From a virus (lineage: Duplodnaviria > Heunggongvirae > Uroviricota > Caudoviricetes), in the IMG/VR virus record IMGVR_UViG_3300042892_004166, positions 15,097 through 79,096 of that record: a stretch of 64,000 bases of DNA. One strand, written 5' to 3'. Below are positions 4,220 through 54,555 of this stretch, piece by piece. The position numbers were made by a program, and so were the translations under genes. Within the stretch, counting starts at the first letter, position 1, and each line of letters begins with the position of its first letter. The notes beneath the pieces are model-generated. The model worked only from the letters and a program-made list of their open reading frames with translations. It did not search any database and had not been told where the DNA came from.

Positions 4220-4291
4220 CTTTAACATAATTTTAACACTCCAGATTTTACCGTCTGGAGTTTTTTGATTATATTTACATATCTAATTAAA
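4220..4291 (+). promoter_or_regulatory. Intergenic cassette: TTTAACA direct repeat + hairpin CTCCAGAttttaccgTCTGGAG + T-run + TTGATTATATTTACAT core
   Basis: Conserved element, 21 copies in window. ATG at 4301. Confidence 0.6.
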
Positions 4292-4300
4292 TTAAACACC

Positions 4301-4438
4301 ATGGAAAAGAAAAAACTTACAAAAATAAACTTCACATTAGAGGAATGGTTTGATGCCCTAAAAGTACCGGCACCGTATCGTAATAAAAAGAAGTATTATA
4401 AGAAAATAAAGCATAAAGATAAATCCGAGGATTTATAA
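4301..4438 (+). CDS. Small basic hypothetical protein (45 aa)
   Basis: ATG 10 nt after cassette core; hand-translated. Confidence 0.3.
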   Translation: MEKKKLTKINFTLEEWFDALKVPAPYRNKKKYYKKIKHKDKSEDL

Positions 4439-4715
4439 AAACTTGTACCATTTAAAAATTAATAATAAACGCCATGAAACAAAATGTAAAAAGCAATCTC
4501 CAGTTTGCATTATGCTGTATTATTGTCTTAATACTTACAGCTCTAGTTGCTCACTTTTCACCTGTAATGTAATATGAAAAATTATATTTTATTCACAAGA
4601 TGTAAAAATAGTATCTTGATAGCCATACTATGCATTAAACTAAGTTGGAATCCCAAACCCCACGGGGCAGCCAGAGCATTGGACAAGAAATATAAGGCTA
4701 GCACTTTTGCAATAT

Positions 4716-4797
4716 GTTAATAACTTTAACAAAAAATTAACACAAAATAGTTTCCGGATTCAAAAAAGTTGATTATATTTACATATCTAATTAAAAC
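4716..4797 (+). promoter_or_regulatory. Intergenic cassette copy (GTTAATAACTTTAACA...TTGATTATATTTACATATCTAATTAAAAC)
   Basis: Conserved element; ATG at 4806. Confidence 0.55.
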
Positions 4798-4805
4798 AAA
4801 GAAAT

Positions 4806-4961
4806 ATGACGACATTTAAGTTCAATACAGTATCAGAAGCAATGGGTCAATTAAGCCACTTAGGTTGCACCGATTACGAATTCACTAATACAAAGACCCA
4901 AATCACAGTGATAGGTATTAATGGCAAAAAGAAGGTTGCAAAAGCAATAATTAAAAAATAA
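4806..4961 (+). CDS. Small hypothetical protein (51 aa)
   Basis: ATG right after cassette; hand-translated. Confidence 0.3.
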   Translation: MTTFKFNTVSEAMGQLSHLGCTDYEFTNTKTQITVIGINGKKKVAKAIIKK

Positions 4962-4965
4962 AAGC

Positions 4966-5280
4966 ATGGGATATTGGACAACCGCATTTGGAAAACGTAA
5001 AAGATTTAATCGAATAGGACATCAACATTTGTCTAACATCTTATGGTTCAAAGAGGTCTTTAATAATGCAACAATCTATAATGATAGGGCTTATGGAGAA
5101 TTACTTTTAGAACTTCGTATAAGATACGATGGCAAACGAAAACCATGGAAACCCTTACCAATTCCAAATGAAATCGATTGGTTAATTCAAATGGGTCTAA
5201 TTATTAACGAGGATATAGTCTTCAAAGGTACAAAAATAGGTTCAATCAAACATATTAATTTAACACTTAAACAAATATAA
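4966..5280 (+). CDS. Hypothetical protein
   Basis: ORF track. Confidence 0.4.
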   Translation: MGYWTTAFGKRKRFNRIGHQHLSNILWFKEVFNNATIYNDRAYGELLLELRIRYDGKRKPWKPLPIPNEIDWLIQMGLIINEDIVFKGTKIGSIKHINLTLKQI

Positions 5281-5323
5281 AAACAGCATGCGTAAATGCA
5301 AGCAATAATTAAAAAATAAGACT

Positions 5324-5500
5324 ATGCTAGACGAATTACAAAAAGTTTGCACAAAACAAAATGCATTAATGTTATCAATGAGTAAAGAATCATGTGATGA
5401 TATTCATTCAGTATTAAGAAGTAAACAATTAGCCGAAAGCATAATTGAACTTGAAATTAAAAAACAATTATTAATAGATTTAATAGCTAAACTAGTTTAA
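5324..5500 (+). CDS. Small hypothetical protein (58 aa)
   Basis: Hand-translated ORF filling the gap. Confidence 0.25.
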   Translation: MLDELQKVCTKQNALMLSMSKESCDDIHSVLRSKQLAESIIELEIKKQLLIDLIAKLV

Positions 5501-5502
5501 TC

Positions 5503-5919
5503 ATGGAAAAACTATCAAACTTAAAATGGTACCTTGCACTTCCAATATGGTATGCAATAATGACAACGGTCGTATTTATAATATGGTTTGGACTCTCTCA
5601 AGCAATGGGAGGACCTGAAGATGTATTTACAAATCCAGTGACATCTCTTAAATTTTCAAGCCTAATGTCAATTCCATTTACTGCTATTGCCCTACTTATG
5701 GTTAGCATGTCAAAGTCCAATACATTATTCTGGGACAGGGCCGAAGAGGTTAGTGAAAGAATCGAAGCTGCTGAAACTTCAAAGGAACTGCATGCAATAA
5801 TCAATGATGAATTTATAGAAGGTGGAACTCTTAGAAGATTATCAGGTGGAGGACCCCACTATGATAAAATGAAACAAATGCTAGCCATTATAAAAACTAA
5901 AATTAAATACGTAAAATAA
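5503..5919 (+). CDS. Membrane protein (2 TM helices) hypothetical
   Basis: ORF track; hydrophobic segments. Confidence 0.4.
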   Translation: MEKLSNLKWYLALPIWYAIMTTVVFIIWFGLSQAMGGPEDVFTNPVTSLKFSSLMSIPFTAIALLMVSMSKSNTLFWDRAEEVSERIEAAETSKELHAIINDEFIEGGTLRRLSGGGPHYDKMKQMLAIIKTKIKYVK

Positions 5920-6125
5920 TGGACGGAATTATTAAATGGGAAGTAGACCATGATTATACTGTTGATAGTTATTTATTAGTAGGAGATTACAATGGACACC
6001 GTTTTGTAAAACCTGTCTTAAAATATTTCTGGGGAATTCCATTAATGTATGCAAAATGGTGCATAACCAGAAATTACACTATTTTATATCCTGAACAATT
6101 TAAAAAAACAAGTAATGAGCAATAA
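5919..6125 (+). CDS. Hypothetical protein
   Basis: ORF track; ATGA overlap with upstream gene. Confidence 0.35.
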   Translation: MDGIIKWEVDHDYTVDSYLLVGDYNGHRFVKPVLKYFWGIPLMYAKWCITRNYTILYPEQFKKTSNEQ

Positions 6126-9964: not shown

Positions 9965-10482
9965 TGAAAACATTCGTAACATCAAATCAGCAATTTGGCC
10001 GACCAGGTGCCATAAAATCATATAAAAGACCCTTCGAGGATGTCCAAGAAATGAATCAAACTCTTTTTGAATCATGGAATTCAACAGTCTCTCCGGAAGA
10101 TATAGTGTACGTTTTAGGTAACTTTGCATGGGACCCAGAAACTGCGGAATATTTCCTTAGAAACCTGAACGGGACTATTATTAATATAGACGGAGAATTT
10201 GACCAGGCCCTTGAAGAGCTAGAAGAGACCGCCTCTGCCCTAGATATTGACTTTTTTAATGGACTATTAGAAGTCTTTTCAGAAGAGAACGCAGTTCTTT
10301 CATATTGGCCTCTCCTTGAATGGCCACGCAAATCAAAAGGTGCCTATTCAATCATAGGATTTCCGAATAAAAAGTATGCAAGTAACCATAAGACCAAAAC
10401 AATTAATTGTTGTTGTGACTTTTGGGAATTTAAACCCGTAGAATTATCCAAGATAATTGAGCTCTTCAATGAAGTAGAATAA
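9964..10482 (+). CDS. Hypothetical protein
   Basis: ORF track. Confidence 0.4.
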   Translation: MKTFVTSNQQFGRPGAIKSYKRPFEDVQEMNQTLFESWNSTVSPEDIVYVLGNFAWDPETAEYFLRNLNGTIINIDGEFDQALEELEETASALDIDFFNGLLEVFSEENAVLSYWPLLEWPRKSKGAYSIIGFPNKKYASNHKTKTINCCCDFWEFKPVELSKIIELFNEVE

Positions 10483-10483
10483 T

Positions 10484-10566
10484 GTTAATAACTTTAACAA
10501 AATTTTAACACTCTAGTGTTTCCCTATTCAAAAAATTGTATTATATTTACATTATAATTAAAAAAC
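10484..10566 (+). promoter_or_regulatory. Intergenic cassette copy
   Basis: GTTAATAACTTTAACAAAATTTTAACAC ... TTGTATTATATTTACATTATAATTAAAAAAC. ATG at 10577. Confidence 0.55.
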
Positions 10567-10576
10567 AAAAACAAAT

Positions 10577-11191
10577 ATGGCATCTAAATCTTACAGAGAA
10601 TTAACAGAGAATTTTTTATCAACCCGTTCTGAAGCAGACTTTACTGCACTTTTTTACAAAGTAAAACCAGGACTTACGACTTATATTAATAAAATAGTAA
10701 AAGATCGCGAAATGGCTGAAGATATTGCCGTAAACACTTTAACAAAATTGTGGACTAAAATTGATCAATATGACCCACAATACCAGATCACTACATGGTT
10801 GTACCGAATTGCATTCAATGATGCATTAGGACATATCAATAATAGAAACAAACAATCCTCCCTGGATGCCCTATCTGATTACGGTGTTGAAGTAAGTGAG
10901 AATGGTGAATTTGTAAGTGGCTCAAAAGGATTAAATGGTGCTATTGAAGATTACGTAATGAAAACCGAACAGGATTTCCTTGAGGAAGATGACGAACTTA
11001 TGGCAAAGTATGGTCGTGCTCTTACTGAAATTGAAAACCTGAAAGGAATGTACCGTGAAATTGTAATTGATCGTTTGATTAATGAGATGAAGTACGAAGA
11101 AATCGCAGAAAAACATGACTTACCGCTACAAACTATTAAAAACCGTATTCGTAGAGGTAAAGCAATCATCGAAGAAAATATGATGTCGTAA
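10577..11191 (+). CDS. Sigma-70 family (ECF-type) RNA polymerase sigma factor
   Basis: Region 2-like DPQYQITTWLYRIAFNDALGHINNR. Region 4 HTH YEEIAEKHDLPLQTIKNRIRRGKAII. Confidence 0.65.
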   Translation: MASKSYRELTENFLSTRSEADFTALFYKVKPGLTTYINKIVKDREMAEDIAVNTLTKLWTKIDQYDPQYQITTWLYRIAFNDALGHINNRNKQSSLDALSDYGVEVSENGEFVSGSKGLNGAIEDYVMKTEQDFLEEDDELMAKYGRALTEIENLKGMYREIVIDRLINEMKYEEIAEKHDLPLQTIKNRIRRGKAIIEENMMS

Positions 11192-11403: not shown

Positions 11404-11406
11404 ATT

Positions 11407-11488
11407 GTTAATAACTTTTTGAAAATAATTAACCTGACATTTTACCGTGTCAGGTTTTTTGTTTATATTTACATATTAAATTTAATTA
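11407..11488 (+). promoter_or_regulatory. Intergenic cassette copy with hairpin ACCTGACAttttaccgTGTCAGGT
   Basis: Compensatory stem variant of the hairpin. Core TTGTTTATATTTACATATTAAATT. ATG at 11490. Confidence 0.6.
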
Positions 11489-11489
11489 A

Positions 11490-12053
11490 ATGAAAGCAAT
11501 AAAACTAATTGACAACATCTATTTAATTGAAGATATATTGGACATTGATAATTATCCAAATCTTTTTGATAGTGTTAAAGTAGAAGCCAGTTTTGATAAA
11601 CCCGGTCGAGGTGGTAGAAAAATGTGTAGAATGACCGATAAGGGTATTACATACACACTATTTGGCAAAAAGTATGGTCGAAAAAACTACTCTGAAACTG
11701 TTTTAAGAATTAAAAAAGAATTAGAGGAGAAGTTACCTGTTAACGCTGATTATTTTAATACATGCACTCTTAATTATTATAATAGTGGAAATTGTTCTTT
11801 TAGGGATCATACCGACAAAATGCCAGACCTAGAACAACCAATGATTGTTGCGACACTTACACTCGGCAATTCTAATCGTAAAATGAGATTGATTAATAGA
11901 TTTACCAACATTGGATACGAGGTTGTACTAAAACATAATTCTATGTTATTTATGGGTCCTGGTATGCAAGACATATATTTACATGGAATTCCAAAAGAAA
12001 AAAATGATGTAGAACCTCGATTAAGTTTAAGCTTTCGAAGACAAAAACTTTAA
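11490..12053 (+). CDS. 2OG-Fe(II) oxygenase, AlkB-like
   Basis: NYYNSGNCSFRDHTD (HxD) ... LINRF ... HGIP distal His. Motif spacing typical of AlkB. Confidence 0.5.
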   Translation: MKAIKLIDNIYLIEDILDIDNYPNLFDSVKVEASFDKPGRGGRKMCRMTDKGITYTLFGKKYGRKNYSETVLRIKKELEEKLPVNADYFNTCTLNYYNSGNCSFRDHTDKMPDLEQPMIVATLTLGNSNRKMRLINRFTNIGYEVVLKHNSMLFMGPGMQDIYLHGIPKEKNDVEPRLSLSFRRQKL

Positions 12054-12126
12054 CAAAAAATTAACATTTTAGATTTTCAGGATTCTAAACTATTGATTAT
12101 ATTTACATATCTAATTTTAACAAAGA
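12048..12126 (+). promoter_or_regulatory. Intergenic cassette copy
   Basis: CTTTAACAAAAAATTAACA ... TTGATTATATTTACATATCTAATTTTAAC. ATG at 12133. Confidence 0.55.
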
Positions 12127-12132
12127 AACACT

Positions 12133-12441
12133 ATGAAAAATTTTAAGGTACTTTCAATCGAAGACGCAGACGAATCAGGAACATCACTTCAAGGTTATAT
12201 TGTTGCAACTTATAGTCAATTACTAGAGGCACTAGGAGAACCTACATACAATGAGCCAAGTGGAGATAATAAAGTTCAAGTTGAATGGGTTGTAGATTTT
12301 GAAGGTGATATTTTTACAATATATGACTGGAAGACCGGTTCAAGAGAATACACTGAAAATGAATTGATGAAATTTAATGTTGGAGGTAAAGTATCAGCAT
12401 CAGATTTTATTCAAGAAGTAGAATCTCAAATCAACAAATAA
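12133..12441 (+). CDS. Hypothetical acidic protein
   Basis: ORF track. Confidence 0.4.
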   Translation: MKNFKVLSIEDADESGTSLQGYIVATYSQLLEALGEPTYNEPSGDNKVQVEWVVDFEGDIFTIYDWKTGSREYTENELMKFNVGGKVSASDFIQEVESQINK

Positions 12442-12971: not shown

Positions 12972-13355
12972 ATGGAAAACATTTTTAAAGTTGCCAAATA
13001 CGAAAAGACGGATGAAGGGTTTAAACACCTTGGATATGATGAGTATCAAATCACATATCTTAAAGGTAATAAACCCCATCAAATCCGGGTAGTTGTTAAT
13101 GGTATTTTAACAAATAGAGTTATTAATTTAATCGATGGTAATTCTGGCTATAAAAATCAAATACTATCCGCAATTAGTGATGTTAAAAATGTTAAAATAG
13201 ATTTAAAAACAAGACCGTCAGAAAAAAAGAAGGTAACATTAGCATACATTGGAACATTTTATAGTAAGTTAATCGTTAAAAACGTTAAGAACTATTTGAT
13301 AGGAATTAACAAAGAAGAGAGAAGAGACACATTAACCAAATATGAATTAATATAA
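12972..13355 (+). CDS. Hypothetical protein
   Basis: ORF track. Confidence 0.4.
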   Translation: MENIFKVAKYEKTDEGFKHLGYDEYQITYLKGNKPHQIRVVVNGILTNRVINLIDGNSGYKNQILSAISDVKNVKIDLKTRPSEKKKVTLAYIGTFYSKLIVKNVKNYLIGINKEERRDTLTKYELI

Positions 13356-14479
13356 TGGAAAATCAAAATTCAGTTTGCTACGTAGCAAAAATAAATGAAG
13401 TTCGAGCAATCGAAGGAGCAGATAACATCGAATTAGTTATCGCAGGTGGATGGAATGCCATCACAAAGAAAGGTGAATTTAGAGAAGGTTCCCTAACAGT
13501 AATTGCAACAACAGATGCAGTAATACCTGAAGCCCTTTCTGAAAAAATGGGAGTTGCAAACTACCTAAGAAAAGGTACAAGAGTCCGAACTGTAAAATTG
13601 CGTGGAGTCTATTCAGAATGTTTAATCATTCCAGTTACATATATTAGAGCAAAATCTATTGTAGAAGGAAAGGATTTAATGGAAGAGTTAGGTATCACTA
13701 AATATGAGCCACCAGTTAAACAAATCCAATTAGCATCTGGTAGAAAAATCAAATGGAGAGATAACCAAAACTTCCATATCTACTACAAGTTTCCAAACTT
13801 GAAAAATGTGGCTGGATTATTTACTGAAGCGGATGAGGTTCAAATCACCAGAAAATTGCACGGAACAAATGCACGTTATGGTATTGTAAAGAAATCTAAA
13901 TTGACCCTTTGGGACAGAGTAAGAAAATTCTTAAGAATTGCTGACGAATGGGTTAACTACGAGTACATTTATGGTTCTCATAATTGTGAGAAAGGATCTG
14001 ATTCTCAAGGATTTTATTCAACTGACGTTTGGAGAACAACTGCCGAAGAATATGGTATCAAAGAAAAACTTTGGAGAGCTGTAAAAAGAAAATCAGTCGA
14101 AGAAATTGGTTCTGGTTTTGTTTTGTATGGTGAAATCTATGGTGCAGGAATTCAAAAGAACTATGAATATGGTTTAAAAGATACTAGATTTGCTGCATTT
14201 GATTTAACAATTGATGGAAAGTATATGGACCCTGAATTAACAGAATACATTGTTGAGGAAGTTCTAGAACTCTCTCATGTTACAGTTCTTTATGAAGGAT
14301 TATGGAATCAAGAGGTACAAGATGGTTTGGTTTTCGGTAACTTCATCGACGGTACTAAAGTCCCACATGAAGGAATTGTAATCAAGCACATTACTGGTGA
14401 AAGACAAAAAGTTGCGAAAGTAATTAATCCAGACTACTTGATTTATGGTGAAAAGAATAACGTAGGAGATTCTCACTGA
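13355..14479 (+). CDS. RNA ligase, Rnl2-like covalent nucleotidyltransferase with N-terminal extension
   Basis: Motif I KLHGTNARYG resembles T4 Rnl2 KIHGTN. Downstream acidic and lysine motifs. Confidence 0.5.
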   Translation: MENQNSVCYVAKINEVRAIEGADNIELVIAGGWNAITKKGEFREGSLTVIATTDAVIPEALSEKMGVANYLRKGTRVRTVKLRGVYSECLIIPVTYIRAKSIVEGKDLMEELGITKYEPPVKQIQLASGRKIKWRDNQNFHIYYKFPNLKNVAGLFTEADEVQITRKLHGTNARYGIVKKSKLTLWDRVRKFLRIADEWVNYEYIYGSHNCEKGSDSQGFYSTDVWRTTAEEYGIKEKLWRAVKRKSVEEIGSGFVLYGEIYGAGIQKNYEYGLKDTRFAAFDLTIDGKYMDPELTEYIVEEVLELSHVTVLYEGLWNQEVQDGLVFGNFIDGTKVPHEGIVIKHITGERQKVAKVINPDYLIYGEKNNVGDSH

Positions 14480-17182: not shown

Positions 17183-17350
17183 ATGAAAAAAGTATTTTTA
17201 GCGATTGCATTTATGGCAACACTAGTAGCTACATCTTGTAAGCAAGTAGAAACTACAACTACCGGAACAGATTCAACAACAGTACAAGTTGATTCAGTAA
17301 AAGTAGACACCGTATCAGTAGACACTACAAAAGTAGACACTGTAAAGTAA
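17183..17350 (+). CDS. Small lipoprotein with VDT repeats
   Basis: Signal peptide + lipobox LVATSC. Repeats VDSVKVDTVSVDTTKVDTVK. Confidence 0.4.
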   Translation: MKKVFLAIAFMATLVATSCKQVETTTTGTDSTTVQVDSVKVDTVSVDTTKVDTVK

Positions 17351-17354
17351 TTAA

Positions 17355-17428
17355 ACTTTAACAAAATTTTAACACTCCAGACTTTCGGGTCTGGAGTTTT
17401 TTGTTTATATTTACATTATAATTAAAAC
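17355..17428 (+). promoter_or_regulatory. Intergenic cassette copy with hairpin CTCCAGActttcggGTCTGGAG
   Basis: Core TTGTTTATATTTACATTATAATTAAAAC. ATG at 17436. Confidence 0.6.
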
Positions 17429-17435
17429 ATCAATT

Positions 17436-17660
17436 ATGATACGAAGTAAACAAGTCAAAACCACCCCGATTATTATAGACCTTACAGGTCCTGATGGAAA
17501 TGCATTTGCTCTTATGGCTTACGCTAAACGATTTGCAACCCAGTTAGGATGGAAAGATAGAGGTGAAGCACTCATAAACGAAATGATGAGCGGAGACTAT
17601 GAGAATCTCTTACAAGCATTTGATAATGCATTCGGTGAATTCGTAATCCTAGAAAGATAA
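17436..17660 (+). CDS. Hypothetical protein
   Basis: ORF track. Confidence 0.4.
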   Translation: MIRSKQVKTTPIIIDLTGPDGNAFALMAYAKRFATQLGWKDRGEALINEMMSGDYENLLQAFDNAFGEFVILER

Positions 17661-18330: not shown

Positions 18331-18416
18331 ATTTTATATGTCTCTGATGGTTATGGCGACCGGTAGCATTGCAAACGCTACAGATACAGTTCGATTCTGT
18401 ACGGAGACTCAAATTA

Positions 18417-18493
18417 AAACTTTAACATAATTTTAACACTTAAAGTTTTACCGATTGAAAGAATTGTTATATATTTACATAACAAATTAGAAC
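18417..18493 (+). promoter_or_regulatory. Intergenic cassette copy (hairpin-less variant) driving tRNA cluster 1
   Basis: CTTTAACATAATTTTAACAC ... TTGTTATATATTTACATAACAAATTAG. First tRNA starts 18526. Confidence 0.5.
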
Positions 18494-18525
18494 AAAGGTT
18501 CTTTGACATACTGATAACCAAATTT

Positions 18526-18597: not shown

Positions 18598-18661
18598 CAA
18601 ACTATACTGCTCGTCATTGAGTAAATATTAAGGGTATTAAATTGATATACCACAGTGTAGC

Positions 18662-42022: not shown

Positions 42023-42490
42023 ATGCAAGTAATTAAACCAAATAGCAGGTACCAAAACCAAGAAAATAAATGTTCAGTATTTTTAGCCGGTTCTATAGAA
42101 ATGGGAAAGGCAGAAGATTGGCAAAAGAGAATCGAGAACAATTACATTAATACCAATGTAACACTTTACAATCCAAGACGTGATGATTGGGATGCTAGCT
42201 GGACTCAAGAACAATCAAATCCTCAATTTAACCAACAAGTAAACTGGGAAATGAATAGTCTTGAAAATGCAGATATAATCTTCATGTACTTCTCTCCAGA
42301 AACTAAGAGTCCAATTAGTCTCCTAGAATTAGGTTTACATGTCAGAGATAATATTATCGTATGTTGTCCTAAAGGGTTTTGGCGAAAAGGAAATGTCGAC
42401 ATTGTATGTACTCGATATAACATTCCAATCTTTGAAAATCTAGACGATGCGATTGGCGCACTAACCACAAAGATTAATCAAAAACTTTAA
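42023..42490 (+). CDS. Nucleoside 2-deoxyribosyltransferase-like protein
   Basis: SVFLAGSIEMG ... NPRRDDW pattern of the NDT family. Confidence 0.45.
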   Translation: MQVIKPNSRYQNQENKCSVFLAGSIEMGKAEDWQKRIENNYINTNVTLYNPRRDDWDASWTQEQSNPQFNQQVNWEMNSLENADIIFMYFSPETKSPISLLELGLHVRDNIIVCCPKGFWRKGNVDIVCTRYNIPIFENLDDAIGALTTKINQKL

Positions 42491-42561
42491 CATAATTTTA
42501 ACACTCCAGATTTTACGGTCTGGAGTTTTTTGTTTATATTTACATTATAATTAAAACAAAC
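42485..42561 (+). promoter_or_regulatory. Intergenic cassette copy with hairpin CTCCAGAttttacggTCTGGAG
   Basis: Core TTGTTTATATTTACATTATAATTAAAACAAAC. ATG at 42567. Confidence 0.6.
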
Positions 42562-42566
42562 AAATT

Positions 42567-43307
42567 ATGGCAAAGATTTACCGTGTTGGAGGATGTATTC
42601 GAGATAAATTCCTTGGATTGGACTCTAAAGATATAGATTTCACTTTCGTGTTGGAAGATACTAAAGGTTTTACGGTTGAGGATGGTTTTCAAATCATGAC
42701 AAACTGGATGACGGACCAAGGTTTTGAAATCTTCTTAAGTACTCCAGATTGTTTTACGATTCGTGCTAAGTTTCCAAAAGACCATCAGTTCGCCGGACTG
42801 GTTGCAGATTTTGTAATGGCCCGTAAAGAGGTTGGATATGTTGAAGGAACCCGTAGACCTATCCTAGAACTTGGAACATTGGAAGACGATTTAATTCGTA
42901 GAGATTTTACCCTAAACGCCCTTGCAGAAGATGTTGATGGTAATCTTATTGACCTATTCGGTGGAGTAGAGGACTTAAAGGCTGGAATTTTAAGAACTCC
43001 GATGCACGCTAGCGCTACCCTAATGGATGACCCACTTCGTTTGCTAAGAGCACTAAGATTTACTATCACTAAAGATTTTCAAATGCACGCTGATATTTGG
43101 AATGCGATGAAGCAACCAAACATTTTACAGAAACTAGAACAAACTGTAAGTGGAGAGAGAATCAGAGAGGAAATCATAAAAATGATGAAACATGATACTC
43201 CAAGAAGTTTTAGACTACTTGCTGACGTTGACCAAGATATTCCAGGATTCTTAGATTTAATCTTTAAAAATGGGATGTGGCTGAAACCAACTTTTGAAAA
43301 AATATAA
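42567..43307 (+). CDS. tRNA nucleotidyltransferase (CCA-adding enzyme) / poly(A) polymerase head domain
   Basis: YRVGGCIRDKFLG...DIDF (GGxVRD...DxD). RRDFTLNA. LFGGVEDL. DDPLRLLRALRF. Confidence 0.75.
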   Translation: MAKIYRVGGCIRDKFLGLDSKDIDFTFVLEDTKGFTVEDGFQIMTNWMTDQGFEIFLSTPDCFTIRAKFPKDHQFAGLVADFVMARKEVGYVEGTRRPILELGTLEDDLIRRDFTLNALAEDVDGNLIDLFGGVEDLKAGILRTPMHASATLMDDPLRLLRALRFTITKDFQMHADIWNAMKQPNILQKLEQTVSGERIREEIIKMMKHDTPRSFRLLADVDQDIPGFLDLIFKNGMWLKPTFEKI

Positions 43308-43583: not shown

Positions 43584-43871
43584 ATGAAACAACTTGAAGA
43601 CAAAGAAATTTTAATATGTGCATGTCACTCGACTGACCATCAACTTATTATCTTATATGATGAGGATGAGGTTGAAGGACACAGATATCCAACATGTTAC
43701 TTTCATATACATTTAACTAAAAGACCATTTTTGGAACGAGTTAAGTACGGATTAAAATACATTTTTGGAAGACAATGCAACTACGGAGCATTCGATGAAT
43801 TTATATTTAATCCAAAAGATGCCGACAAACTACAAGAACTTGTTAACTATTTAAAAGATTTAAAGAAATGA
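43584..43871 (+). CDS. Hypothetical protein
   Basis: ORF track. Confidence 0.4.
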   Translation: MKQLEDKEILICACHSTDHQLIILYDEDEVEGHRYPTCYFHIHLTKRPFLERVKYGLKYIFGRQCNYGAFDEFIFNPKDADKLQELVNYLKDLKK

Positions 43872-45103
43872 AAAAAATTGTTTTTTATCACACATATCTA
43901 GATGGTAATTACAAAAGTATAATCCAAGACCAATTGACTAAGTTATTTTTAGGTGGTTTATACGATGCATGCGATTCAATACAATTGCATATAGCATCGC
44001 CACATGGAGACAGAATTCAATGGCTTTTAGATATTGTTAAAGACTATAAAAAGATAATTCCAACTGTCATTGAAATTGATAAATCACAATATCCAAGTGA
44101 TTATCGAGAATCTAAAATAACACTGCTAAATCTTAAAAAAATGGCAGATGAAGTTGAAGGATATTATTGCTATTTTCATTCAAAGGGCGTTACTACCCGC
44201 GAAATATTTCAAGATGATTGGAGAAATTCATGTGACTGGGTTACATTTTGCGACTGGCTACCTAATATCCAAATGCTAGACGATGGATATGACGCTATTG
44301 GCCCTAATTACAGACGACATGACGAAGGGTATGATCCACATTTTAGTGGAAATTATTGGTGGGCAACCCATAAGCATTTAAGAAACTTAAATGCTGATTT
44401 TTTAATCGATACTACCAATATATACCTAGAAGAATTTTGGATAGGTTCCGTAGAAGCAAACTTTGAATCTACATTCGAATGTGGATCGGTATATCCTCCG
44501 CTAATTGAAACAACTATTAATAAATATATAAAAAACAAAAGTATGCACACTATTTTTACTCCTCAAACTAGAGAATGGCCAAAGTTGGCAACCCAACAAC
44601 CAACAGCTTGGGGAAATATACCAACAATCTTGCAAGATTTAATAAAAAGATCAGGTATAAAAACAGAAAAAGCGATCGAATTCGGCGTTGAATTTGGATA
44701 TTCAACATCTGCCTTTGCAAATTACTTTAATACAGTAGACGGGGTCGATACCTTCGTTGGAGACATACACGCTGGATTAAGAGAAGATATGCTTGAGGCT
44801 ACTAAATCAAATCTTGCGGAATTTACAAATATAAATCTTATTAGAAGTTCATACGAGGATTATATTAAAGATAATCCTGAAGTATATAATATGGCTCATG
44901 TTGATATTATACACACATACGAAGATACTTACAAGTGCGGGGAATGGTGTGTTCAACATGCAGAAATTACCGTTTTTCATGATACCTTGTCCTTTCCAGA
45001 AGTGTATAAGGCATGCGAAGATTTAAGTATTAAATACAATCTTAATTTCTATAATTATGAAGAATCTCACGGTTTAGGAATACTTACAAAATTAAAACTT
45101 TAA
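43868..45103 (+). CDS. Two-domain hypothetical protein; C-terminal half resembles a class I SAM-dependent methyltransferase
   Basis: AIEFGVEFGYSTSAF (motif I-like) ... VDIIHTYED. Confidence 0.35.
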   Translation: MKKIVFYHTYLDGNYKSIIQDQLTKLFLGGLYDACDSIQLHIASPHGDRIQWLLDIVKDYKKIIPTVIEIDKSQYPSDYRESKITLLNLKKMADEVEGYYCYFHSKGVTTREIFQDDWRNSCDWVTFCDWLPNIQMLDDGYDAIGPNYRRHDEGYDPHFSGNYWWATHKHLRNLNADFLIDTTNIYLEEFWIGSVEANFESTFECGSVYPPLIETTINKYIKNKSMHTIFTPQTREWPKLATQQPTAWGNIPTILQDLIKRSGIKTEKAIEFGVEFGYSTSAFANYFNTVDGVDTFVGDIHAGLREDMLEATKSNLAEFTNINLIRSSYEDYIKDNPEVYNMAHVDIIHTYEDTYKCGEWCVQHAEITVFHDTLSFPEVYKACEDLSIKYNLNFYNYEESHGLGILTKLKL

Positions 45104-45175
45104 CATAATTTTAACAGTTAAAGTTTTCCCGATTCAAACTTATTGATTATATTTACATATCAAATTAAAACAAAC
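45098..45175 (+). promoter_or_regulatory. Intergenic cassette copy
   Basis: CTTTAACATAATTTTAACAG ... TTGATTATATTTACATATCAAATTAAAAC. ATG at 45181. Confidence 0.55.
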
Positions 45176-45180
45176 GCAAA

Positions 45181-45585
45181 ATGATTAGAGTATATTTAGA
45201 TGACGTAAGAACACCGGTTGAAAAAGACTGGGTTGTTGTTAGAAGTTACGATGAATTTGTAGAAAAAGTTACCGAAATTGGACTTGAAAATATTGACTTG
45301 ATTTCATTAGACCATGACCTAGGAGACACTGCAATGGCCGAATGGCATAAAAATGTGTACCACAATTACGAATTGAACTATGATAATATTACAGAAAAGA
45401 CTGGAATGGATTGCACTAAATGGTTGGTCAATCAATGGTTGGATGGAGCTAATGTTGTTGATGTTGTAATACACTCTGCAAATGCAGTTGGTAGTGCAAA
45501 TATGATGGGTTATATTAATAACTATAGACATATTCATAGATTGCCTCAGAATTGCATCCGTGTAAGAATCGAACATACTGTATAA
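45181..45585 (+). CDS. Hypothetical protein
   Basis: ORF track. Confidence 0.4.
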   Translation: MIRVYLDDVRTPVEKDWVVVRSYDEFVEKVTEIGLENIDLISLDHDLGDTAMAEWHKNVYHNYELNYDNITEKTGMDCTKWLVNQWLDGANVVDVVIHSANAVGSANMMGYINNYRHIHRLPQNCIRVRIEHTV

Positions 45586-47379: not shown

Positions 47380-47969
47380 TGATTAAAACACCTAAAGTAT
47401 TAGTGGCTCCGCCATATGGAGAACTTGAAAAGCAGATGTACCGCGAATGGTTAATTGAAAATGGTTTTAAACCATATTTCTTAGGAACCGAATGTAAAAA
47501 CATCGATGCTCCATTAATACTTTGCGGAGGTGGAGATATTGGTAAAAGTCCTAAAAGAGATGCTAGAGAAACCGAATGGATTACTAGTGCCCTTGAAAAT
47601 GGCCAACCAATTATTGGAATTTGTCGAGGAATGCAACTCTTAAATGTTTACTTTGGCGGAGAGGTTGAAAATATATCCGAACATCTTACTGAAAATCATC
47701 TCAATGATACATTTGACGACGATGACGATCATTCATTTAGACTATCCCAGTTTCATCAAATATATGATATTGATGGAGATTCAAAGACCGTTAATTCACG
47801 TCACCACCAGCACTGTCGTTGGGTTCCATTGAACTTTGAGATTACCCACAGGGCTACTGATGGTACTGTTGAAGGATTTCAAGACTTAGAGAAGAGGATT
47901 TGGGCAGTTCAGTGGCACCCTGAACGGGACGAATGCGAGAACAATGAATATCCACTCAATAAACTTTAA
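47379..47969 (+). CDS. Class I glutamine amidotransferase-like (peptidase C26/gamma-glutamyl hydrolase-like)
   Basis: LILCGGGDI ... GICRGMQLLNVYFGG (nucleophile Cys) ... WAVQWHPE. Confidence 0.55.
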   Translation: MIKTPKVLVAPPYGELEKQMYREWLIENGFKPYFLGTECKNIDAPLILCGGGDIGKSPKRDARETEWITSALENGQPIIGICRGMQLLNVYFGGEVENISEHLTENHLNDTFDDDDDHSFRLSQFHQIYDIDGDSKTVNSRHHQHCRWVPLNFEITHRATDGTVEGFQDLEKRIWAVQWHPERDECENNEYPLNKL

Positions 47970-48039
47970 CATAATTTTAACACTCCTGATTTTCCGGAAT
48001 CATACATATTGATTATATTTACATTATAATTAAAACAAC
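47964..48039 (+). promoter_or_regulatory. Intergenic cassette copy
   Basis: AAACTTTAACATAATTTTAACAC ... TTGATTATATTTACATTATAATTAAAAC. ATG at 48058. Confidence 0.55.
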
Positions 48040-48057
48040 AATTTAAAAACAAATCAC

Positions 48058-50991: not shown

Positions 50992-51146
50992 CAGTTATAA
51001 TTTATTTTGTAATTGTAGGTATATATGTAGCATACGAATTACATAGGGCTCCTCATTTAGATGATAATGGAAATGAGATTAAAAAAGAGACTAAGACGGA
51101 TAATCTTCTTGATTTCGATGAAGACGAAGAATTTTTAGGTTAACAA

Positions 51147-51222
51147 AACTTTAACATAATTTTAACACTCCAGATTTTTTAGTCTGGGGTTTTTTGTTTA
51201 TATTTACACTATAATTAAAACC
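51147..51222 (+). promoter_or_regulatory. Intergenic cassette copy with hairpin CCAGAtttttTAGTCTGG
   Basis: Core TTGTTTATATTTACACTATAATTAAAACC. ATG at 51229. Confidence 0.55.
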
Positions 51223-51228
51223 AAAAAT

Positions 51229-51465
51229 ATGAACTACCAACAACTACAATTAGTAAAACAGGCAAAAGATGGTGTAATTAATTTAGGCACCGCAAATGGA
51301 TGGAACAAACAAACGGGTGAAGATTATCGAGCCCTGCAAGAATTCAAAGTACCTGGTTCGGGAACTCAAAGAAACTTAGGCAGATGTTATAATGAGTATG
51401 GGTTTGATGTCCTTATTGAAGACCAGACCTACACTGTAATTCATACTGTAGATTCAGGAGATTAA
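51229..51465 (+). CDS. Hypothetical protein
   Basis: ORF track. Confidence 0.4.
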   Translation: MNYQQLQLVKQAKDGVINLGTANGWNKQTGEDYRALQEFKVPGSGTQRNLGRCYNEYGFDVLIEDQTYTVIHTVDSGD

Positions 51466-51466
51466 T

Positions 51467-51907
51467 ATGACACGAATTAATGCACATATCCGACCGATAA
51501 AATTATGCGACCAGCACCTTGTTGCAGAGTATCGAGAAATCCTGAGGACTAATGCTCTTGCAATTAAAAGGGCCAGGAAAGAGGGAAAGTCGATGTTAGG
51601 TAATATTCAACAATCTTTTACACTTGGAAGTGGACACGTTACATTCTTTTATGACAAATTGTTGTATATCCATCTCAGGTTTAATGCTCTTAGAAGTGAA
51701 CTGATTAATCGAGGGATGAATGCCACAATTGAATGGCAGTTAGACGAAATAAAGGAGTTCAAATGGTTATACAATGACTGGCCGGAAGACCAAGAGGCTG
51801 ATCAATTAATTGTTGCACGAATCTTGGAAAGAGCCCGAACTATGAAAAAGATTTCGCACACTTCTAAGAATATTGACTACGAAACATATTGTGAAATTTT
51901 AACATAA
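51467..51907 (+). CDS. denV: Pyrimidine-dimer DNA glycosylase (T4 endonuclease V, DenV)
   Basis: N-terminus [25 protein letters not shown] matches T4 endoV [36 protein letters not shown] matches T4 [12 protein letters not shown]. Confidence 0.85.
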   Translation: [146 protein letters not shown]

Positions 51908-51973
51908 ATTTAACACAAAATAGTTTCCGGATTCAAAACTATTGATTATATTTACATATCTAATTAAAACAAA
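51908..51973 (+). promoter_or_regulatory. Intergenic cassette copy
   Basis: AAATTTAACACAAAATAGTTTCCGGATTC ... TTGATTATATTTACATATCTAATTAAAAC. ATG at 51982. Confidence 0.55.
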
Positions 51974-51981
51974 GAACTATT

Positions 51982-52284
51982 ATGTTTCCATATTCTGCAA
52001 TTGCCGCTTCACAATTATTAAGAAATCAAAAACCTTATGTTGCTAAAGAACCTAAGATTTCTACACTAGTGGATTATACAAAAACAAGTCCTGAAGACTT
52101 CTACAAATTACTTACAATAAGAGCTAAGAGCGCTGGTATATGCGAAATGGCTGATATGATTAGTAACTGGATGGATTTTGATAATTTATCAGATAAGAAA
52201 AAAAGAAGATTCGTTATTGAAACAGAAACACCAGAGTACTATTCAATCCAAAACAGATTTAAAAGATTTTTTAACTTAAAATAA
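51982..52284 (+). CDS. Hypothetical protein
   Basis: ORF track. Confidence 0.4.
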   Translation: MFPYSAIAASQLLRNQKPYVAKEPKISTLVDYTKTSPEDFYKLLTIRAKSAGICEMADMISNWMDFDNLSDKKKRRFVIETETPEYYSIQNRFKRFFNLK

Positions 52285-53209: not shown

Positions 53210-53221
53210 TAGAAAAGAGAT

Positions 53222-53437
53222 ATGAAAAAGTTTGATGCTAAGGAAATTACTGATAAATTAGATGATATTGGTGTTATCTATACAGTAAATAACAATCCAA
53301 CACCGGAACAGCTTGAAAAACTAAGAAAAGGTGTTGAATCAAGAGATTTAAGAATTCAACAAATGGTAGAAGATTATCACTCAGGCAAGTATGATGAGTT
53401 AATTGAATCCATGGATAATGAAGAACCTGCTACATAA
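53222..53437 (+). CDS. Small acidic hypothetical protein
   Basis: ORF track. Confidence 0.35.
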   Translation: MKKFDAKEITDKLDDIGVIYTVNNNPTPEQLEKLRKGVESRDLRIQQMVEDYHSGKYDELIESMDNEEPAT

Positions 53438-53658
53438 CACGGCGCCAAATTAATTGTGACATGTACTATCTGGAAGGTCAGGTCAGGTTCTTTAGATTTA
53501 CCAATGCTCGCTGTTAATTGAGAGGTAGAGCGCATAATTTCCGAACAAGGGTTAACAGTAGGAAGACGTCGCCCATTGCACTCAATCAGTAACCCTGCTC
53601 TTGTTCTTCTAATGTGAGAAATCCTGTTAGTTAATAAGAAAGACCAAGGTTGGTAAAT

Positions 53659-53742
53659 TAATCGGTTGGTGTAACAGGAGTATTCCTGCTAGGGTTAACA
53701 TGGACGGTAAGTCCGGATAGGGGTTCGAATCCCTTACCGATT
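53659..53742 (+). tRNA. Type II tRNA (84 nt), anticodon undetermined
   Basis: Acceptor AATCGGT/ACCGATT is perfect. Variable-arm hairpin GGAC-ggtaa-GTCC. T-arm AGGGGTTCGAATCCCTT. Confidence 0.4.
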
Positions 53743-53794
53743 TCAAAAATAAAACGGCTCTGCAGAGCTAGGAGAGGTCTGGTTAAAGTGGGCA

Positions 53795-53830
53795 GTGCCA
53801 ACACAGGAAGTTCGAATCTTCCCTCTCTAC
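53795..53830 (+). other. tRNA-like T-arm/acceptor fragment (GGAAGTTCGAATCTTCC-CTCTCTA-C) without a clear canonical 5' half
   Basis: T-arm motif only; no folded D/anticodon arms found by eye. Confidence 0.25.
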
Positions 53831-54077
53831 TAAAAACTACTTGAGTAGGTGGGAGTGGTCAATCAACAACTCACTGAAGTTTCAGGTAAACTTATATTTA
53901 AAACGGGACGGGCGAGCCTATTATAGAGTAAGTAGCAAGTTAATGATTTTTAGGAGGATTGGATCAGTTTTTAACATTAGCGAAGGAGTCAGGTGGAGAA
54001 ATGGCACCAAAGTATAAAACAAAGGGCAGGACGCAAAGTCACTGAACATAGAGGAGAGGTTGAGGAACTTCCATTAC

Positions 54078-54106
54078 TTGTAGGTTCGAATCCTACACTG
54101 ACCACA
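54078..54106 (+). other. tRNA-like 3' half: T-arm GTAGGTTCGAATCCTAC + ACTGACC-A-CCA
   Basis: Ends in encoded ACCA, but no complementary 5' acceptor within 100 nt upstream. Confidence 0.3.
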
Positions 54107-54264
54107 ATGAGTTGATTACTCAGATGATGTGCGTATCTATAAAACGTACCGACATACTCTTGGGCGTGAGGCAAGAGCGGGTTTTGAAATTCAGTTGCGC
54201 CGTTACGGAAACTGGGCTTGGAGGGCAATAAACTTCATGAGGTCTAATCAACCATAATTGCAAA

Positions 54265-54350
54265 AGGTCAGGTGGCGGAATTGGAGAGACGCAACTCTAT
54301 ATGGAGTGGAGGTGAAAGAAACTCATACAGGTTCGAATCCTGTCCTGACT
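54265..54350 (+). tRNA. Leu-like type II tRNA with non-canonical anticodon loop
   Basis: 5' GGTCAGG-TG-GCGGAATTGGAGAGACGC closely matches bacterial tRNA-Leu. Anticodon arm CTCTA-tatggag-TGGAG has A33. T-arm ACAGGTTCGAATCCTGT. 3' CCTGACT-A. Confidence 0.4.
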
Positions 54351-54408
54351 ACGCTAATTAAACTAGTTTATGAACAGTCTTTGAGGTGCGATGCCTCCAT
54401 TAGAACGG

Positions 54409-54474
54409 AAGTCAGGTGAAAGTAGGCTAAGACGAATTAAGTTTCGCGTTGCAGGTTCGATTCCTGTCCTGACT
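54409..54474 (+). tRNA. Truncated tRNA-like element (66 nt) sharing its 3' half with 54265-54350
   Basis: Acceptor AGTCAGG/CCTGACT is perfect. T-arm GCAGGTTCGATTCCTGT. Too short for a full D-arm. Anticodon-like hairpin CGAA-ttaagt-TTCG. Confidence 0.3.
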
Positions 54475-54480
54475 ACAAAT

Positions 54481-54555
54481 TGTTAATAACTTTTTATCAA
54501 AAAGTTTTACCGATTGAAATATATTGATTATATTTACATATCTAATTAAAACAAA
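54481..54555 (+). promoter_or_regulatory. Intergenic cassette copy
   Basis: TGTTAATAACTTTTTATC...AGTTTTACCGATTGAAA...TTGATTATATTTACATATCTAATTAAAACAAAT. ATG at 54556. Confidence 0.55.

Follow-up and report, generated by a model that had tools for sequence, protein, structure and literature searches.

The window, that is, the whole 64,000-nt stretch of phage DNA analyzed here, harbors 21 copies of an intergenic cassette of ~100 bp, all on the + strand, which were detected with nhmmer using an HMM built from the copies (E = 1e-11 to 1e-23). This search of the window found no cassette 5′ of 3018 or 3′ of 54568. The earlier note had placed 21 copies between 4220 and 54555; the total of 21 was correct, with 20 of them inside that span and the remaining one at 3018–3118. 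With at most one mismatch, TTATATTTACAT gave 23 matches compared with 2.0 expected, a count that was reached in 0 of 100 shuffles. The order of elements proposed beforehand was borne out: (GTTAATAAC) TTTAACA-N4-TTTTAACAC, then the hairpin and T-run, then TTG(A/T)T-TATATTTACAT-(TATAAT or ATCTAAT)TAAAAC, ~10 nt, and ATG.

The anatomy is illustrated by a reference cassette at 42478–42574 (core 42534). Its first TTTAACA repeat (42486–42492) contains the stop codon TAA of the upstream gene (42488–42490), and the second lies at 42497–42503. The hairpin (42503–42526; dG -13.1, z = -4.4) carries TTTT of the -33 type in its loop (42511–42514) and is followed by a T-run (42526–42531) and the -7-type box TATATTTA (42535–42542). 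From the -12 to -5 register of F. johnsoniae, transcription is predicted to start at ~42547. The leader has AAAA at 42553–42556, and the ATG is at 42567. Six other cassettes bear a nested terminator hairpin: 4212–4308 (core 4269; hairpin 4238–4261 with an 8-bp stem, dG -12.8), 11405–11499 (core 11463; hairpin 11431–11456, AACCTGACA/TGTCAGGTT, dG -15.4, z = -6.9), 17340–17440 (core 17405; hairpin 17374–17397), 26210–26299 (core 26260; hairpin 26229–26252 with a G·U pair), 32435–32527 (core 32492; hairpin 32460–32485), and 51136–51233 (core 51198; hairpin 51167–51190), the last of which adjoins an ORF absent from relatives.

Thus, the hairpin is present in 7 of the 21 copies. The copy at 3018–3118 (core 3082; E = 8e-14), which precedes the ORF at 3115–3705 and lacks the TTTAACA repeats, has kept, as a hairpin relic, just the 3′ arm with its T-run (stem 1 bp, T-run 6). 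No hairpin is present in the remaining 13, so that the six hairpin-less copies listed in the earlier note were an undercount; five of those six keep TTTTACCG exactly, and the copy at 45147 reads TTTTCCCG. HMM matches without a hairpin lie at 4704–4812, 33608–33712, and 45078–45183. A further HMM match (23427–23530) has a separate intrinsic terminator directly 5′ of it (23412–23435; 10 pairs, 6 of them GC, and a T-run), as has the copy at 30513–30613 (dG -2.3, z = -0.9; terminator at 30487–30514, 12 pairs). The cassette at 12033–12137 (core 12097) is the recombination partner of the 11405–11499 copy, that at 47959–48043 has a longer leader (44 nt from box to ATG), and that at 51885–51981 again adjoins an ORF absent from relatives. 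The remaining hairpin-less copies lie before recognizable genes: 10475–10572 immediately 5′ of the gene for the phage sigma factor, an arrangement repeated in relatives; 18405–18510 before the tRNA array (tRNA-Gly at 18526); 36704–36797 before the PRPP synthetase gene; 39160–39269 before a small ORF that is followed by the NAMPT gene; and 54458–54568 after tRNA-Pro and before the DNA ligase gene.

The cassettes span gene boundaries: the upstream ORF stops 40–61 nt 5′ of the box in 16 of the 21 copies, and an ATG lies 26–36 nt 3′ of it in 19. An AT-rich block at about -61 to -43 from the predicted start usually comprises two TTTAACA repeats 11 bp apart and often includes the TAA stop of the preceding gene. 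These repeats occupy the place expected of an UP-like AT-rich element and also provide the stop codon of the upstream gene. The leader TAATTAAAAC has no Shine-Dalgarno motif and carries AAAA at about -14 to -11 from the ATG. Shine-Dalgarno motifs precede only 7 of 120 phage genes, and positions -3, -6, and -10 to -13 before genes are rich in A, as in Bacteroidetes. In the cassette before the tRNA array, which has no ATG downstream, the leader motif is missing and AACAAATTAGAAC stands in its place. Phage similarity, G+C content, and the leader signature point to Flavobacterium-type bacteria as the presumed hosts of this large phage. The first genes behind cassettes are small (median ~96 aa) or auxiliary (sigma factor, DNA ligase, PRPP synthetase, NAMPT, and a protein whose N-terminal sequence resembles a CCA-adding enzyme); among those scanned or recognizable, none was structural.

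Related phage contigs in IMG/VR yielded >190 further cassettes (179 unique) in 86 loci, and position-wise conservation was computed on 196 unique copies. TATATTTACA was invariant among them, a conservation that is partly ascertained because the related loci were retrieved with a search pattern including the core. The TTTT at -24 to -21 from the box lies outside that pattern and was 84–100% conserved; T-14 (97%), A-27 (91%), and AA at -41/-40 (98%) were also conserved. Sigma-A promoters of F. johnsoniae have the -7 box T-12 A-11 H H T-8 T-7 T-6 G-5, in which G-5 is nearly invariant (PMC6847099). The cassette matches five of the six invariant positions and both H positions: TATATTTA is TAnnTTTG with A replacing G. 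This A was found in about 98% of the 196 copies, and a few G variants occur inside the window phage's own group. When TATATTTA is taken as the -7 box, TTTT lands at -36 to -33, which is the position of the -33 box. Chryseobacterium phage MA9V-1 (cultured; OR050627) has eight copies of TTTTnAnATGTC-N12-TA[TA]ATTT[GA] in 78 kb, four with TATATTTG (the canonical G) and four with TA(T/A)ATTTA; these promoters are not described in the MA9V-1 paper. The -33 position and the same architecture in MA9V-1 suggest that the TTTT is a promoter element, which would explain why it survives in hairpin-less copies. Both the -7/-33 fit and the likeness to MA9V-1 run counter to the earlier assertion that the core does not fit the Bacteroidetes sigma-A geometry, for which TTG(A/T)TT had been taken as the upstream box. 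We found no canonical TTTG-N19-21-TAnnTTTG promoter on the coding strand of the window, and TAHHTTTG is not overrepresented before genes (4 sites compared with 9.7 expected); therefore, the cassette is the sole candidate for a sequence that the host polymerase could recognize.

The hairpin has the properties of an intrinsic terminator. Stems are all-or-none (8–9 bp in 70 of the 196 copies, 0–4 bp in the remainder) and fall into ~10 types; mean dG was -13.6 kcal/mol with the hairpin compared with -1.8 kcal/mol without it, a T6 tail follows the stem in 68 of the 70 hairpin copies, and folding z-scores ranged from -4.3 to -6.9. The two stem types reported before, CTCCAGA/TCTGGAG and ACCTGAC/GTCAGGT, do occur in the window. 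As evidence of covariation, two types within one genome are weak, but the relatives back it strongly: two-sided changes were found at seven of nine stem pairs, with a covariation score of 0.452 compared with 0.161 in shuffles (reached by 0 of 500), and the signal was lost once the partner columns were slid by 1–3 positions. The stems tolerate G·U and never A·C, therefore full pairing is possible only in the + strand RNA. The loop, which had been described as constant, varies (TTTTACCG, TTTTACGG, CTTTCGGG, TTTTACCA, TTTTTTAG), and conservation is limited to its 5′ TTT(T). All-or-none stems, the T6 run, covariation, and sense-only G·U together indicate an intrinsic terminator. Among the ten strong + strand terminators in positions 1–60000, seven are nested in a cassette and two abut one. 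The proposed fusion of a terminator with a phage promoter is thus supported, given the covarying RNA structure with its U-run and the promoter- and leader-like placement before ORFs and the tRNA array.

We propose, with a probability of about 0.6 for the explanation as a whole, that each cassette is a complete expression junction, which spans from the stop codon of one gene to the next ATG and combines a Bacteroidetes primary-sigma-type promoter, an optional nested terminator, and a leader free of Shine-Dalgarno sequence. From 5′ to 3′, its parts would be the AT-rich TTTAACA block, which probably acts as an UP-like element (the repeats could also be an activator site), the promoter (TTTT at -36 to -33, (G)TC at -27 to -25, and TATATTTA-CAT at -12 to -2), and a leader of 20–24 nt with AAAA ~11–14 nt before the ATG. 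In roughly one-third of the copies, a G+C-rich hairpin of 8–9 bp with a U6 run is built around the predicted -33 element: its loop holds the TTTT, and its 3′ arm together with the U-run would make up the promoter spacer. Transcripts arriving from upstream would end inside the next promoter, and the transcription units would therefore be independent; at hairpin-less copies, transcription would continue into the next unit or be stopped by a separate terminator immediately 5′ of the cassette. Host RNA polymerase with the primary sigma factor would read the cassettes early or in mid-infection, and the units so driven would include the phage's own sigma gene.

A clearly less probable reading keeps this anatomy and assigns it to a phage-specific (middle) promoter class, read by the host core polymerase with the phage ECF-type sigma or with a phage-modified sigma-A. 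This class would be told apart by its invariant TTTACAT and by lacking G at both -5 and -33. Because of the A in place of the nearly invariant host G-5 and TTTT in place of TTTG, unmodified host sigma-A might read the cassettes poorly, and so uniform a departure from the host boxes could mark a class of its own. This reading also gains from a conserved stretch much longer than a minimal promoter requires and from the absence of the canonical host promoter noted above. Furthermore, the phage does encode such a factor: the ORF at 10577–11191 (+ strand) is confirmed as an ECF-type sigma by Pfam (Sigma70_r2 and r4_2), TIGR02937 (above cutoff), and PDB matches to SigW/SigE. However, in the window as in relatives, its gene is itself preceded by a cassette, so another factor must read the first copy. 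No AAC (-35)/CGT (-10) pair was found at ECF spacing, and the -35 position is occupied by TTTT, which makes the phage sigma, suggested previously as the reader, an unlikely one. In addition, MA9V-1 interchanges G and A within the same architecture and has a different, RpoS-like sigma.

A better candidate target of the phage sigma is a second motif, ATATATAA, which has no upstream partner and, in two phage groups, is located 5′ of the gene for the tail sheath. Because it also precedes non-structural genes, the case for a split into early and late classes comes mostly from this one gene in the two groups. Such a split would resemble the T4 early/late (TATAAATA) scheme in its long conserved early-type consensus before small early genes and tRNAs, its short -10-only AT motif before a structural gene, and the expression of the phage sigma gene from the early-type class. 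It differs in its sigma factor, a complete ECF type with regions 2 and 4 instead of a gp55-like one, and the timing of the two classes is predicted for the window phage.

It is unlikely that the cassettes are kept mainly as recombination linkers, with regulation secondary and their near-identity selected or homogenized such that gene modules can move between co-infecting phages. A clean hybrid does exist: the single cassette of the related locus L047 joins the 5′ half of the core 11463 copy to the 3′ half of the core 12097 copy. Cassette-bounded units are gained or lost at 11485–12093, 17429–17657, 43871–45178, 51220–51466, and 51976–52276, and a cassette is involved in 27 of the 63 indels or replacements. 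There is hardly any constraint on how upstream block, hairpin, and leader type are combined (TATAAT and ATCTAAT occur at 33:32 with the hairpin and 45:69 without it), and the frequency of HSP ends inside cassettes is 4.3 times that predicted by cassette length. However, the enrichment relative to other gene junctions is not significant: 14 of 19 cassette junctions have breakpoints, compared with 43 of 83 others (p = 0.12), and the cassette junctions are wider. The recombination role is thus statistically indistinct from ordinary gene-boundary mosaicism. The fixed ATG spacing, position-specific conservation, and all-or-none terminator point to regulatory constraint, and a linker function is in any case compatible with the expression-junction explanation.

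Less probable still is an RNA-level element without a promoter, in which the hairpin would be a 3′ stabilizer or RNase site in long polycistronic transcripts and the core a processing or translation signal. The hairpin does pair as RNA, with G·U on the sense strand only, and the leader motif adjoins the ATG; yet in the 63% of copies that are hairpin-less the -33/-7-type boxes are retained with their exact spacing, the loop is free to vary except for its conserved 5′ TTTT, the U-run is strictly tied to the stem as in terminators, one copy precedes tRNAs without an ATG, and an Rfam search gave no family match. An inverted repeat at a constant place in a repeated element might also recall an N4-like hairpin-form promoter for a phage-encoded polymerase or a MITE-like small mobile element, which is highly improbable, given that most copies have no hairpin, that orientation and ATG distance are fixed with no terminal inverted repeats or target duplications, and that a bacterial genome-wide scan gave just two stray matches.

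Compared with Bacteroidetes sigma-ABfr promoters (-33 TTTG/-7 TAnnTTTG), the cassette shares the -7 register with five of six invariant bases and non-G at -10/-9, a T-rich box at -36 to -33, AT-rich spacer features, and a short leader in which positions -3, -6, -12, and -13 are A. It differs in A for the near-invariant G-5 and T for the G of TTTG, and it adds invariant CAT (-4 to -2), (G)TC (-27 to -25), A at -39, and a 20-nt upstream repeat block. MA9V-1 shares TTTT-N5-(G)TC-N12-TA[TA]ATTT[GA] in identical register, the TATAATTAA(A)A(C) leader, and ATATATAA 5′ of the tail sheath gene, whereas its terminators, instead of being nested, are found directly 5′ of the TTTT box, the canonical G is kept in half of its copies, the TTTAACA repeats are missing, and copy-to-copy identity is lower.

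The closest known system is the promoter-early stem-loop (PeSL) cassette of T4-type myoviruses (Arbiol et al., 2010, PMC2839356; Comeau et al., 2014, PMC4122927). Common to both are an AT-rich upstream block, a host primary-sigma-type promoter, a terminator stem-loop whose stem sequence varies between lineages, a translation signal, clustering among small ORFs and auxiliary genes, and cassette-to-cassette recombinants with module indels. In PeSLs, the promoter has the sigma-70 -35/-10 form and the stem-loop lies just 5′ of it; in the cassettes described here, the geometry is the Bacteroidetes -33/-7 type, the leader has no Shine-Dalgarno motif, and the stem-loop, found in only ~37% of copies, is nested inside the promoter, so that its loop contains the -33 element and the U-run forms the spacer. 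Promoter and terminator activity and mini-circles have been demonstrated for PeSLs, and the same activities are predicted for the phage cassette. Because they are nearly identical, the cassettes would act as homology patches, at which gene-plus-cassette modules may be gained and lost in the manner of the T4 PeSLs.

The cassette is an intergenic repeat of ~100 bp that is composed of a TTTAACA block, an optional hairpin with a T-run, a promoter-like core, a leader, and ATG; the earlier note had given this order correctly. The sequence TTATATTTACAT occurs 23 times in the window when up to one mismatch is allowed, compared with 2 occurrences expected. An HMM built from the copies detected exactly 21 cassettes of ~100 bp, all on the + strand and between 3018 and 54568. 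This agrees with the 21 copies counted in the earlier note, although only 20 of them lie within the span it had assigned to the repeat and one lies just before it. The stop codon of the upstream ORF lies 40-61 nt ahead of the -7-type element of the core (TATATTTA, the box) in 16 of the 21 window copies and is often the TAA within the first TTTAACA, and ATG follows 26-36 nt past the box in 19 of the 21, mostly at 32-36 nt. Between 2.8 and 54.6 kb, all spaces of 70 nt or more that separate protein genes are occupied by a cassette except two of 79-135 nt (4439-4573 and 23680-23758). The first TTTAACA repeat supplies the TAA of the upstream stop in 6 copies (e.g., 42486-42492), and in others this TAA is inside GTTAATAAC. 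The two TTTAACA repeats lie 11 nt apart and offer TAA in two reading frames; therefore, a gene recombined ahead of the cassette would usually be closed.

Scanning of IMG/VR with the core pattern yielded at least 86 loci. The matches listed contain 201 cassette matches, 179 of which are unique, and pooling them with the window copies gave 196 unique copies. TATATTTACA(T) is invariant over this pooled set, partly because the loci were found by the core pattern. TTTT at -24 to -21 from the box, which lies outside the search pattern, is 84-100% conserved (100% at -23/-22), and T-14 (97%), A-27 (91%), and AA at -41/-40 (98%) are conserved in the same 196 copies. The bacterial genomes scanned with the core pattern gave two stray single matches and no host clue, and a cassette query against cultured phages matched the Chryseobacterium phage MA9V-1 (OR050627) and, by chance, a Staphylococcus phage. 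With Rfam 15 at the gathering threshold, tRNAs alone were matched in the window, and the cassette belongs to no known RNA family; such motifs were not found in the literature searched on the promoters of Flavobacterium, Tenacibaculum, immuto, and MA9V-1 phages. We conclude that the cassette is real and biologically meaningful.

The window has a G+C content of 32-39%, and its + strand holds all genes but one. It contains 29 tRNA genes and encodes NAMPT, PRPP synthetase, RNA ligase, DNA ligase, an exonuclease, an endolysin, and an ECF-type sigma factor. In a DNA search for cultured relatives, only 395 bp of the window was matched, to Flavobacterium phage immuto. Shine-Dalgarno motifs accompany just 7 of 120 window genes, and positions -3, -6, and -10 to -13 relative to the start codons show an excess of A, the same Bacteroidetes upstream-A signature that has been described in F. 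johnsoniae (PMC6847099). From the gene content, the immuto match, the SD-poor genes, and the A-rich start regions, we infer that the window comes from a large phage with a Flavobacteriia-type host and represents the phage's early/auxiliary region.

The auxiliary and RNA ligase genes (36795-37667, 39512-41041, 13355-14479, and 42567-43307) form a set reminiscent of KVP40-type phages. One auxiliary gene looks like a CCA-adding tRNA nucleotidyltransferase, judged by its N-terminal sequence; this gene and those for PRPP synthetase and NAMPT (NAD salvage) each start a cassette-driven unit or lie close to its beginning, and the RNA ligase gene is three ORFs into the unit beginning at the cassette at 12033-12137. 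The tRNA regions are located at 18340-22678, 53660-54352, and 57372-57451. ARAGORN reported a 90-nt 'tRNA-???' with a 4-base anticodon (ttga) at 20016-20105, where Rfam made no call, and missed a tRNA at 19412-19480 that Rfam called. T-arm-like fragments within the array gaps 20811-21241 and 53745-54265 may be decayed or unusual tRNAs. The sole convincing minus-strand gene, a 45-aa very lysine-rich ORF (MAKGTTGGAFNATPKKKRKGVHSKTKSTKNKGAQKYKKAYKGQGK) at 2860-2994 with its own strong terminator (2846-2874), is divergent from the cassette at 3018-3118; in keeping with this, that cassette has no TTTAACA block.

In F. johnsoniae promoters, T-12, A-11, T-8, T-7, T-6, and G-5 are near-invariant and -10/-9 are never G (PMC6847099), and the -12 to -5 register is identical in F. 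psychrophilum. TATATTTA fits five of the six invariant -7-box positions and both H positions. It departs from a strict sigma-A -7 box at G-5, which is replaced by A in ~98% of the 196 copies from the matches listed and the window. In the same register, the conserved TTTT falls at -36 to -33, the position of the -33 box (TTTG), 20 bp upstream of the -7 box and with T in place of the G of TTTG. Chen et al. in 2007 reportedly found a 19-bp optimum between TTTG and the -7 box. An AT-rich block is present upstream of the core, and the predicted start is just ahead of TAATTAAAAC. In MA9V-1 (78 kb), eight sites of the form TTTTnAnATGTC-N12-TA[TA]ATTT[GA], in a register identical to that of the cassette and followed by TATAATTAA-type leaders, carry the canonical G in four cases and A in the other four, providing independent support for a Bacteroidetes-type promoter. 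The terminators of MA9V-1 are located directly upstream of the promoter, whereas those of the window cassettes are nested. These results suggested that the cassette core is a Bacteroidetes-type promoter.

Among the matches listed, G variants are rare in the window's own phage group. The canonical TTTG-N19-21-TAnnTTTG matched the window three times, as expected by chance, and never on the + strand; TAHHTTTG was not enriched ahead of genes in 821 kb comprising the window and 86 listed loci (4 vs 9.7 expected). In the same 821 kb, the coding strand holds fewer TAHHTTTG sites (355) than the opposite one (630); this and the under-representation ahead of genes may reflect a skew in composition, or spurious host promoters may be avoided. 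Three sigma-70 pairings were rejected for a host without Shine-Dalgarno sequences: TTG(A/T)TT with TATAAT leaves a spacer of 10 bp, a mismatch that had been recognized before; TTTACC-N17-TATATT reaches 9/12 only in copies with TTTTACCG, the conserved part being TTT only; and TTTACA as -35 would place the -10 box at non-conserved positions.

Only 7 of the 21 window copies carry the hairpin, one carries a relic, and 13 are without it, in place of the six hairpin-less copies that had been counted earlier; the loop, which had been described as constant, varies except for its 5' TTT(T). The persistence of this part of the loop in copies without a hairpin would be explained by its TTTT being an element of the predicted promoter. 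In the 196 copies (matches listed and window), pairing outward from the loop is all-or-none, with 8-9 consecutive pairs in 70 copies and 0-4 in 126. The mean fold energy is -13.6 kcal/mol in hairpin copies (range -10 to -17.5; stem of 8-9 bp) versus -1.8 kcal/mol in the others, and the z-scores are -4.3 to -6.9 for examples of window hairpins and -0.9 for one hairpin-less copy. A T6 run directly follows the stem in 68 of the 70 hairpin copies. About 10 stem types were distinguished among the matches listed and the window: ACTCCAGA, AACCCAGA, AAGCCCAGA, AACCTGACA, AATCCGACA, ACCCGACA, GCCCGGCA, AGCCCGAGA, AGCCCGATA, and AGCCAAACA. The stem surrounds fixed bases of the predicted promoter: T-14 is the pairing partner of A-27, and the conserved GTC is part of TGTCA in one stem type.

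Covariation was assessed on 53 distinct hairpin copies from the matches listed and the window, selected on at least 5 inner pairs. Changes on both sides were found in 7 of the 9 stem pairs, and the covariation score of 0.452 (0.161 when shuffled) was reached by none of 500 shuffles. All covariation measures collapsed once the partners were slid by 1-3 columns, and the outer three stem pairs, which were not subject to the selection, never fail. G·U cells are present and A·C cells never occur in the 53 copies; therefore, full pairing is achieved only in + strand RNA. The window hairpins were also detected by a terminator scan, and nine of the ten strong + strand terminators of the window belong to cassettes, seven being nested within one and two adjoining a hairpin-less one (23412-23435 and 30487-30514); the remaining one stands apart at 57694-57719. 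The cassette thus places a stable G+C-rich stem and a U-run downstream of a stop codon, with the structure kept by compensatory change on the transcribed sense, and we conclude that the hairpin is a predicted intrinsic terminator. With this covarying stem and U6 and the predicted Bacteroidetes-type core, the 'terminator plus promoter' proposed in the earlier note probably holds.

The 3' part of the cassette is a putative leader of 20-24 nt that is Shine-Dalgarno-free and carries AAAA ~11-14 nt ahead of ATG, a position that has been linked to efficient initiation in F. johnsoniae (PMC6847099). The cassette ahead of the tRNA array has neither the leader motif nor ATG.

The first genes downstream of cassettes are small (median ~96 aa) or auxiliary, and no structural genes were found among the scanned or recognizable first downstream genes of the window and the listed relatives. 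The phage sigma gene (ECF-type, 204 aa, 10577-11191, + strand) itself is behind a cassette in the window and at least 8 relatives. ECF-sigma promoters have AAC at -35 and CGT at -10 with a spacing of ~16-17 bp, the CGT box being known also from SM6. Both hallmarks are absent from the cassette, which has TTTT at -35 and TATATT at -10, and the AAC of TTTAACA, at -57/-46, is too far upstream for an ECF -35. The proposal that the core is not sigma-A-like and is read by the ECF sigma is therefore probably wrong, as the geometry and five of six -7-box positions match sigma-A and the ECF hallmarks are lacking.

A second motif, ATATATAA, which reads GATATATA in some copies, is 11-fold enriched ahead of cassette-less genes (61 of 301 regions) and has no conserved upstream partner. 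It is found in the window at 8882, 14938, 18061, 21509, 27228, 57085, and 60129 (all +), in the related loci L035/L030, and at record positions 241, 13671, 23418, and 25769 of MA9V-1. Relatives among the listed loci possess a tail sheath gene, and ATATATAA is situated 30-35 nt ahead of it in these and in MA9V-1. A loose AARGGATATATA search gave no excess above chance. The phage sigma is a candidate reader of ATATATAA, a motif similar to the T4 late promoter TATAAATA. A role of ATATATAA as a purely structural-gene promoter was rejected, since S1-domain, ATP-grasp, amidoligase, and homing-endonuclease-like genes also lie behind it. One homing-endonuclease-like ORF behind a ATATATAA-type motif, with a NUMOD3 motif (60165-60839), sits in an 822-bp segment missing from the relative L016; another, in L057, looks by eye like the GIY-YIG type. 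The S1-domain gene encodes a conserved ~400-aa protein with ribosomal-protein-S1-type RNA-binding domains (Pfam S1, E = 2e-24) in relatives (404 aa in L008, L010, L024, L060, L068, L073, L079, and L082; 422 aa in L007/L038). This protein deserves mention because SD-free initiation in Bacteroidetes is thought to lean on S1 binding A-rich leaders.

The downstream genes, the placement of ATATATAA, and the absence of ECF hallmarks lead us to favor a division in which the host primary sigma would read the cassette (early/middle) and the phage sigma would read ATATATAA. It is unlikely that the cassette is instead a phage-private promoter dialect, read only after the phage sigma is supplied or the host sigma-A is modified. 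Consistent with such a dialect, A at -5 and T at -33 uniformly replace both hallmark G's while the Bacteroidetes -33/-7 geometry is kept, and invariant flanks are added (CAT at -4 to -2 and (G)TC at -27 to -25). If it existed, it would correspond, in Bacteroidetes, to the middle-mode control of T4, and the promoter-nested terminator would tie the termination of one unit to the firing of its successor.

The closest known system to the cassette is the promoter-early stem-loop (PeSL) of T4-type phages, which consists of an AT-rich block, a sigma-70-type early promoter with a terminator stem-loop just upstream, a Shine-Dalgarno sequence, and ATG; PeSLs cluster in hyperplastic regions, and module exchange and mini-circle formation take place through them (PMC2839356, PMC4122927). 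[quoted passage not shown] It differs in its predicted Bacteroidetes-like rather than sigma-70-type promoter, in its SD-free leader, and in its terminator, which is nested inside the promoter and is optional (7 of 21 copies in the window and 70 of 196 in the matches listed plus window). The upstream block, the hairpin, and the type of leader are combined with almost no restriction. In the relative L047, a single cassette consists of the 5' half of c11463 and the 3' half of c12097 (cassettes named by core position), and the intervening ORF is missing; several other unit indels are bounded by cassettes. HSP ends are 4.3-fold more frequent in cassettes than expected from cassette length (16% vs 3.8%). 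Compared with other gene junctions, the excess of breakpoints at cassettes was not significant (14/19 vs 43/83, p = 0.12), and we therefore downgraded the claim of a recombination hot spot. A PeSL-like shuffling role for the cassette is plausible.

To our knowledge, the transcription signals of Flavobacteriia-infecting phages are essentially undescribed. The cassette would provide large freshwater/environmental phages with a ready-made, strongly conserved combination of predicted promoter, terminator, and SD-free leader, and its phage group is widespread, IMG/VR contigs containing more than 190 copies. The cassette could serve as a genetic part for Bacteroidetes, in which E. coli signals fail. 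Its codes overlap in an unusually compact way: the terminator loop would also be the -33 box, the U-run would also be the promoter spacer, and the upstream repeat also provides a stop codon. How the -7 box is read by the Bacteroidetes sigma-A or a phage factor could be approached through the systematic replacement of G by A at -5. Expression modules that are self-contained and ready to be shuffled, the concept behind PeSLs, would with this cassette extend past the T4-like phages of Proteobacteria.
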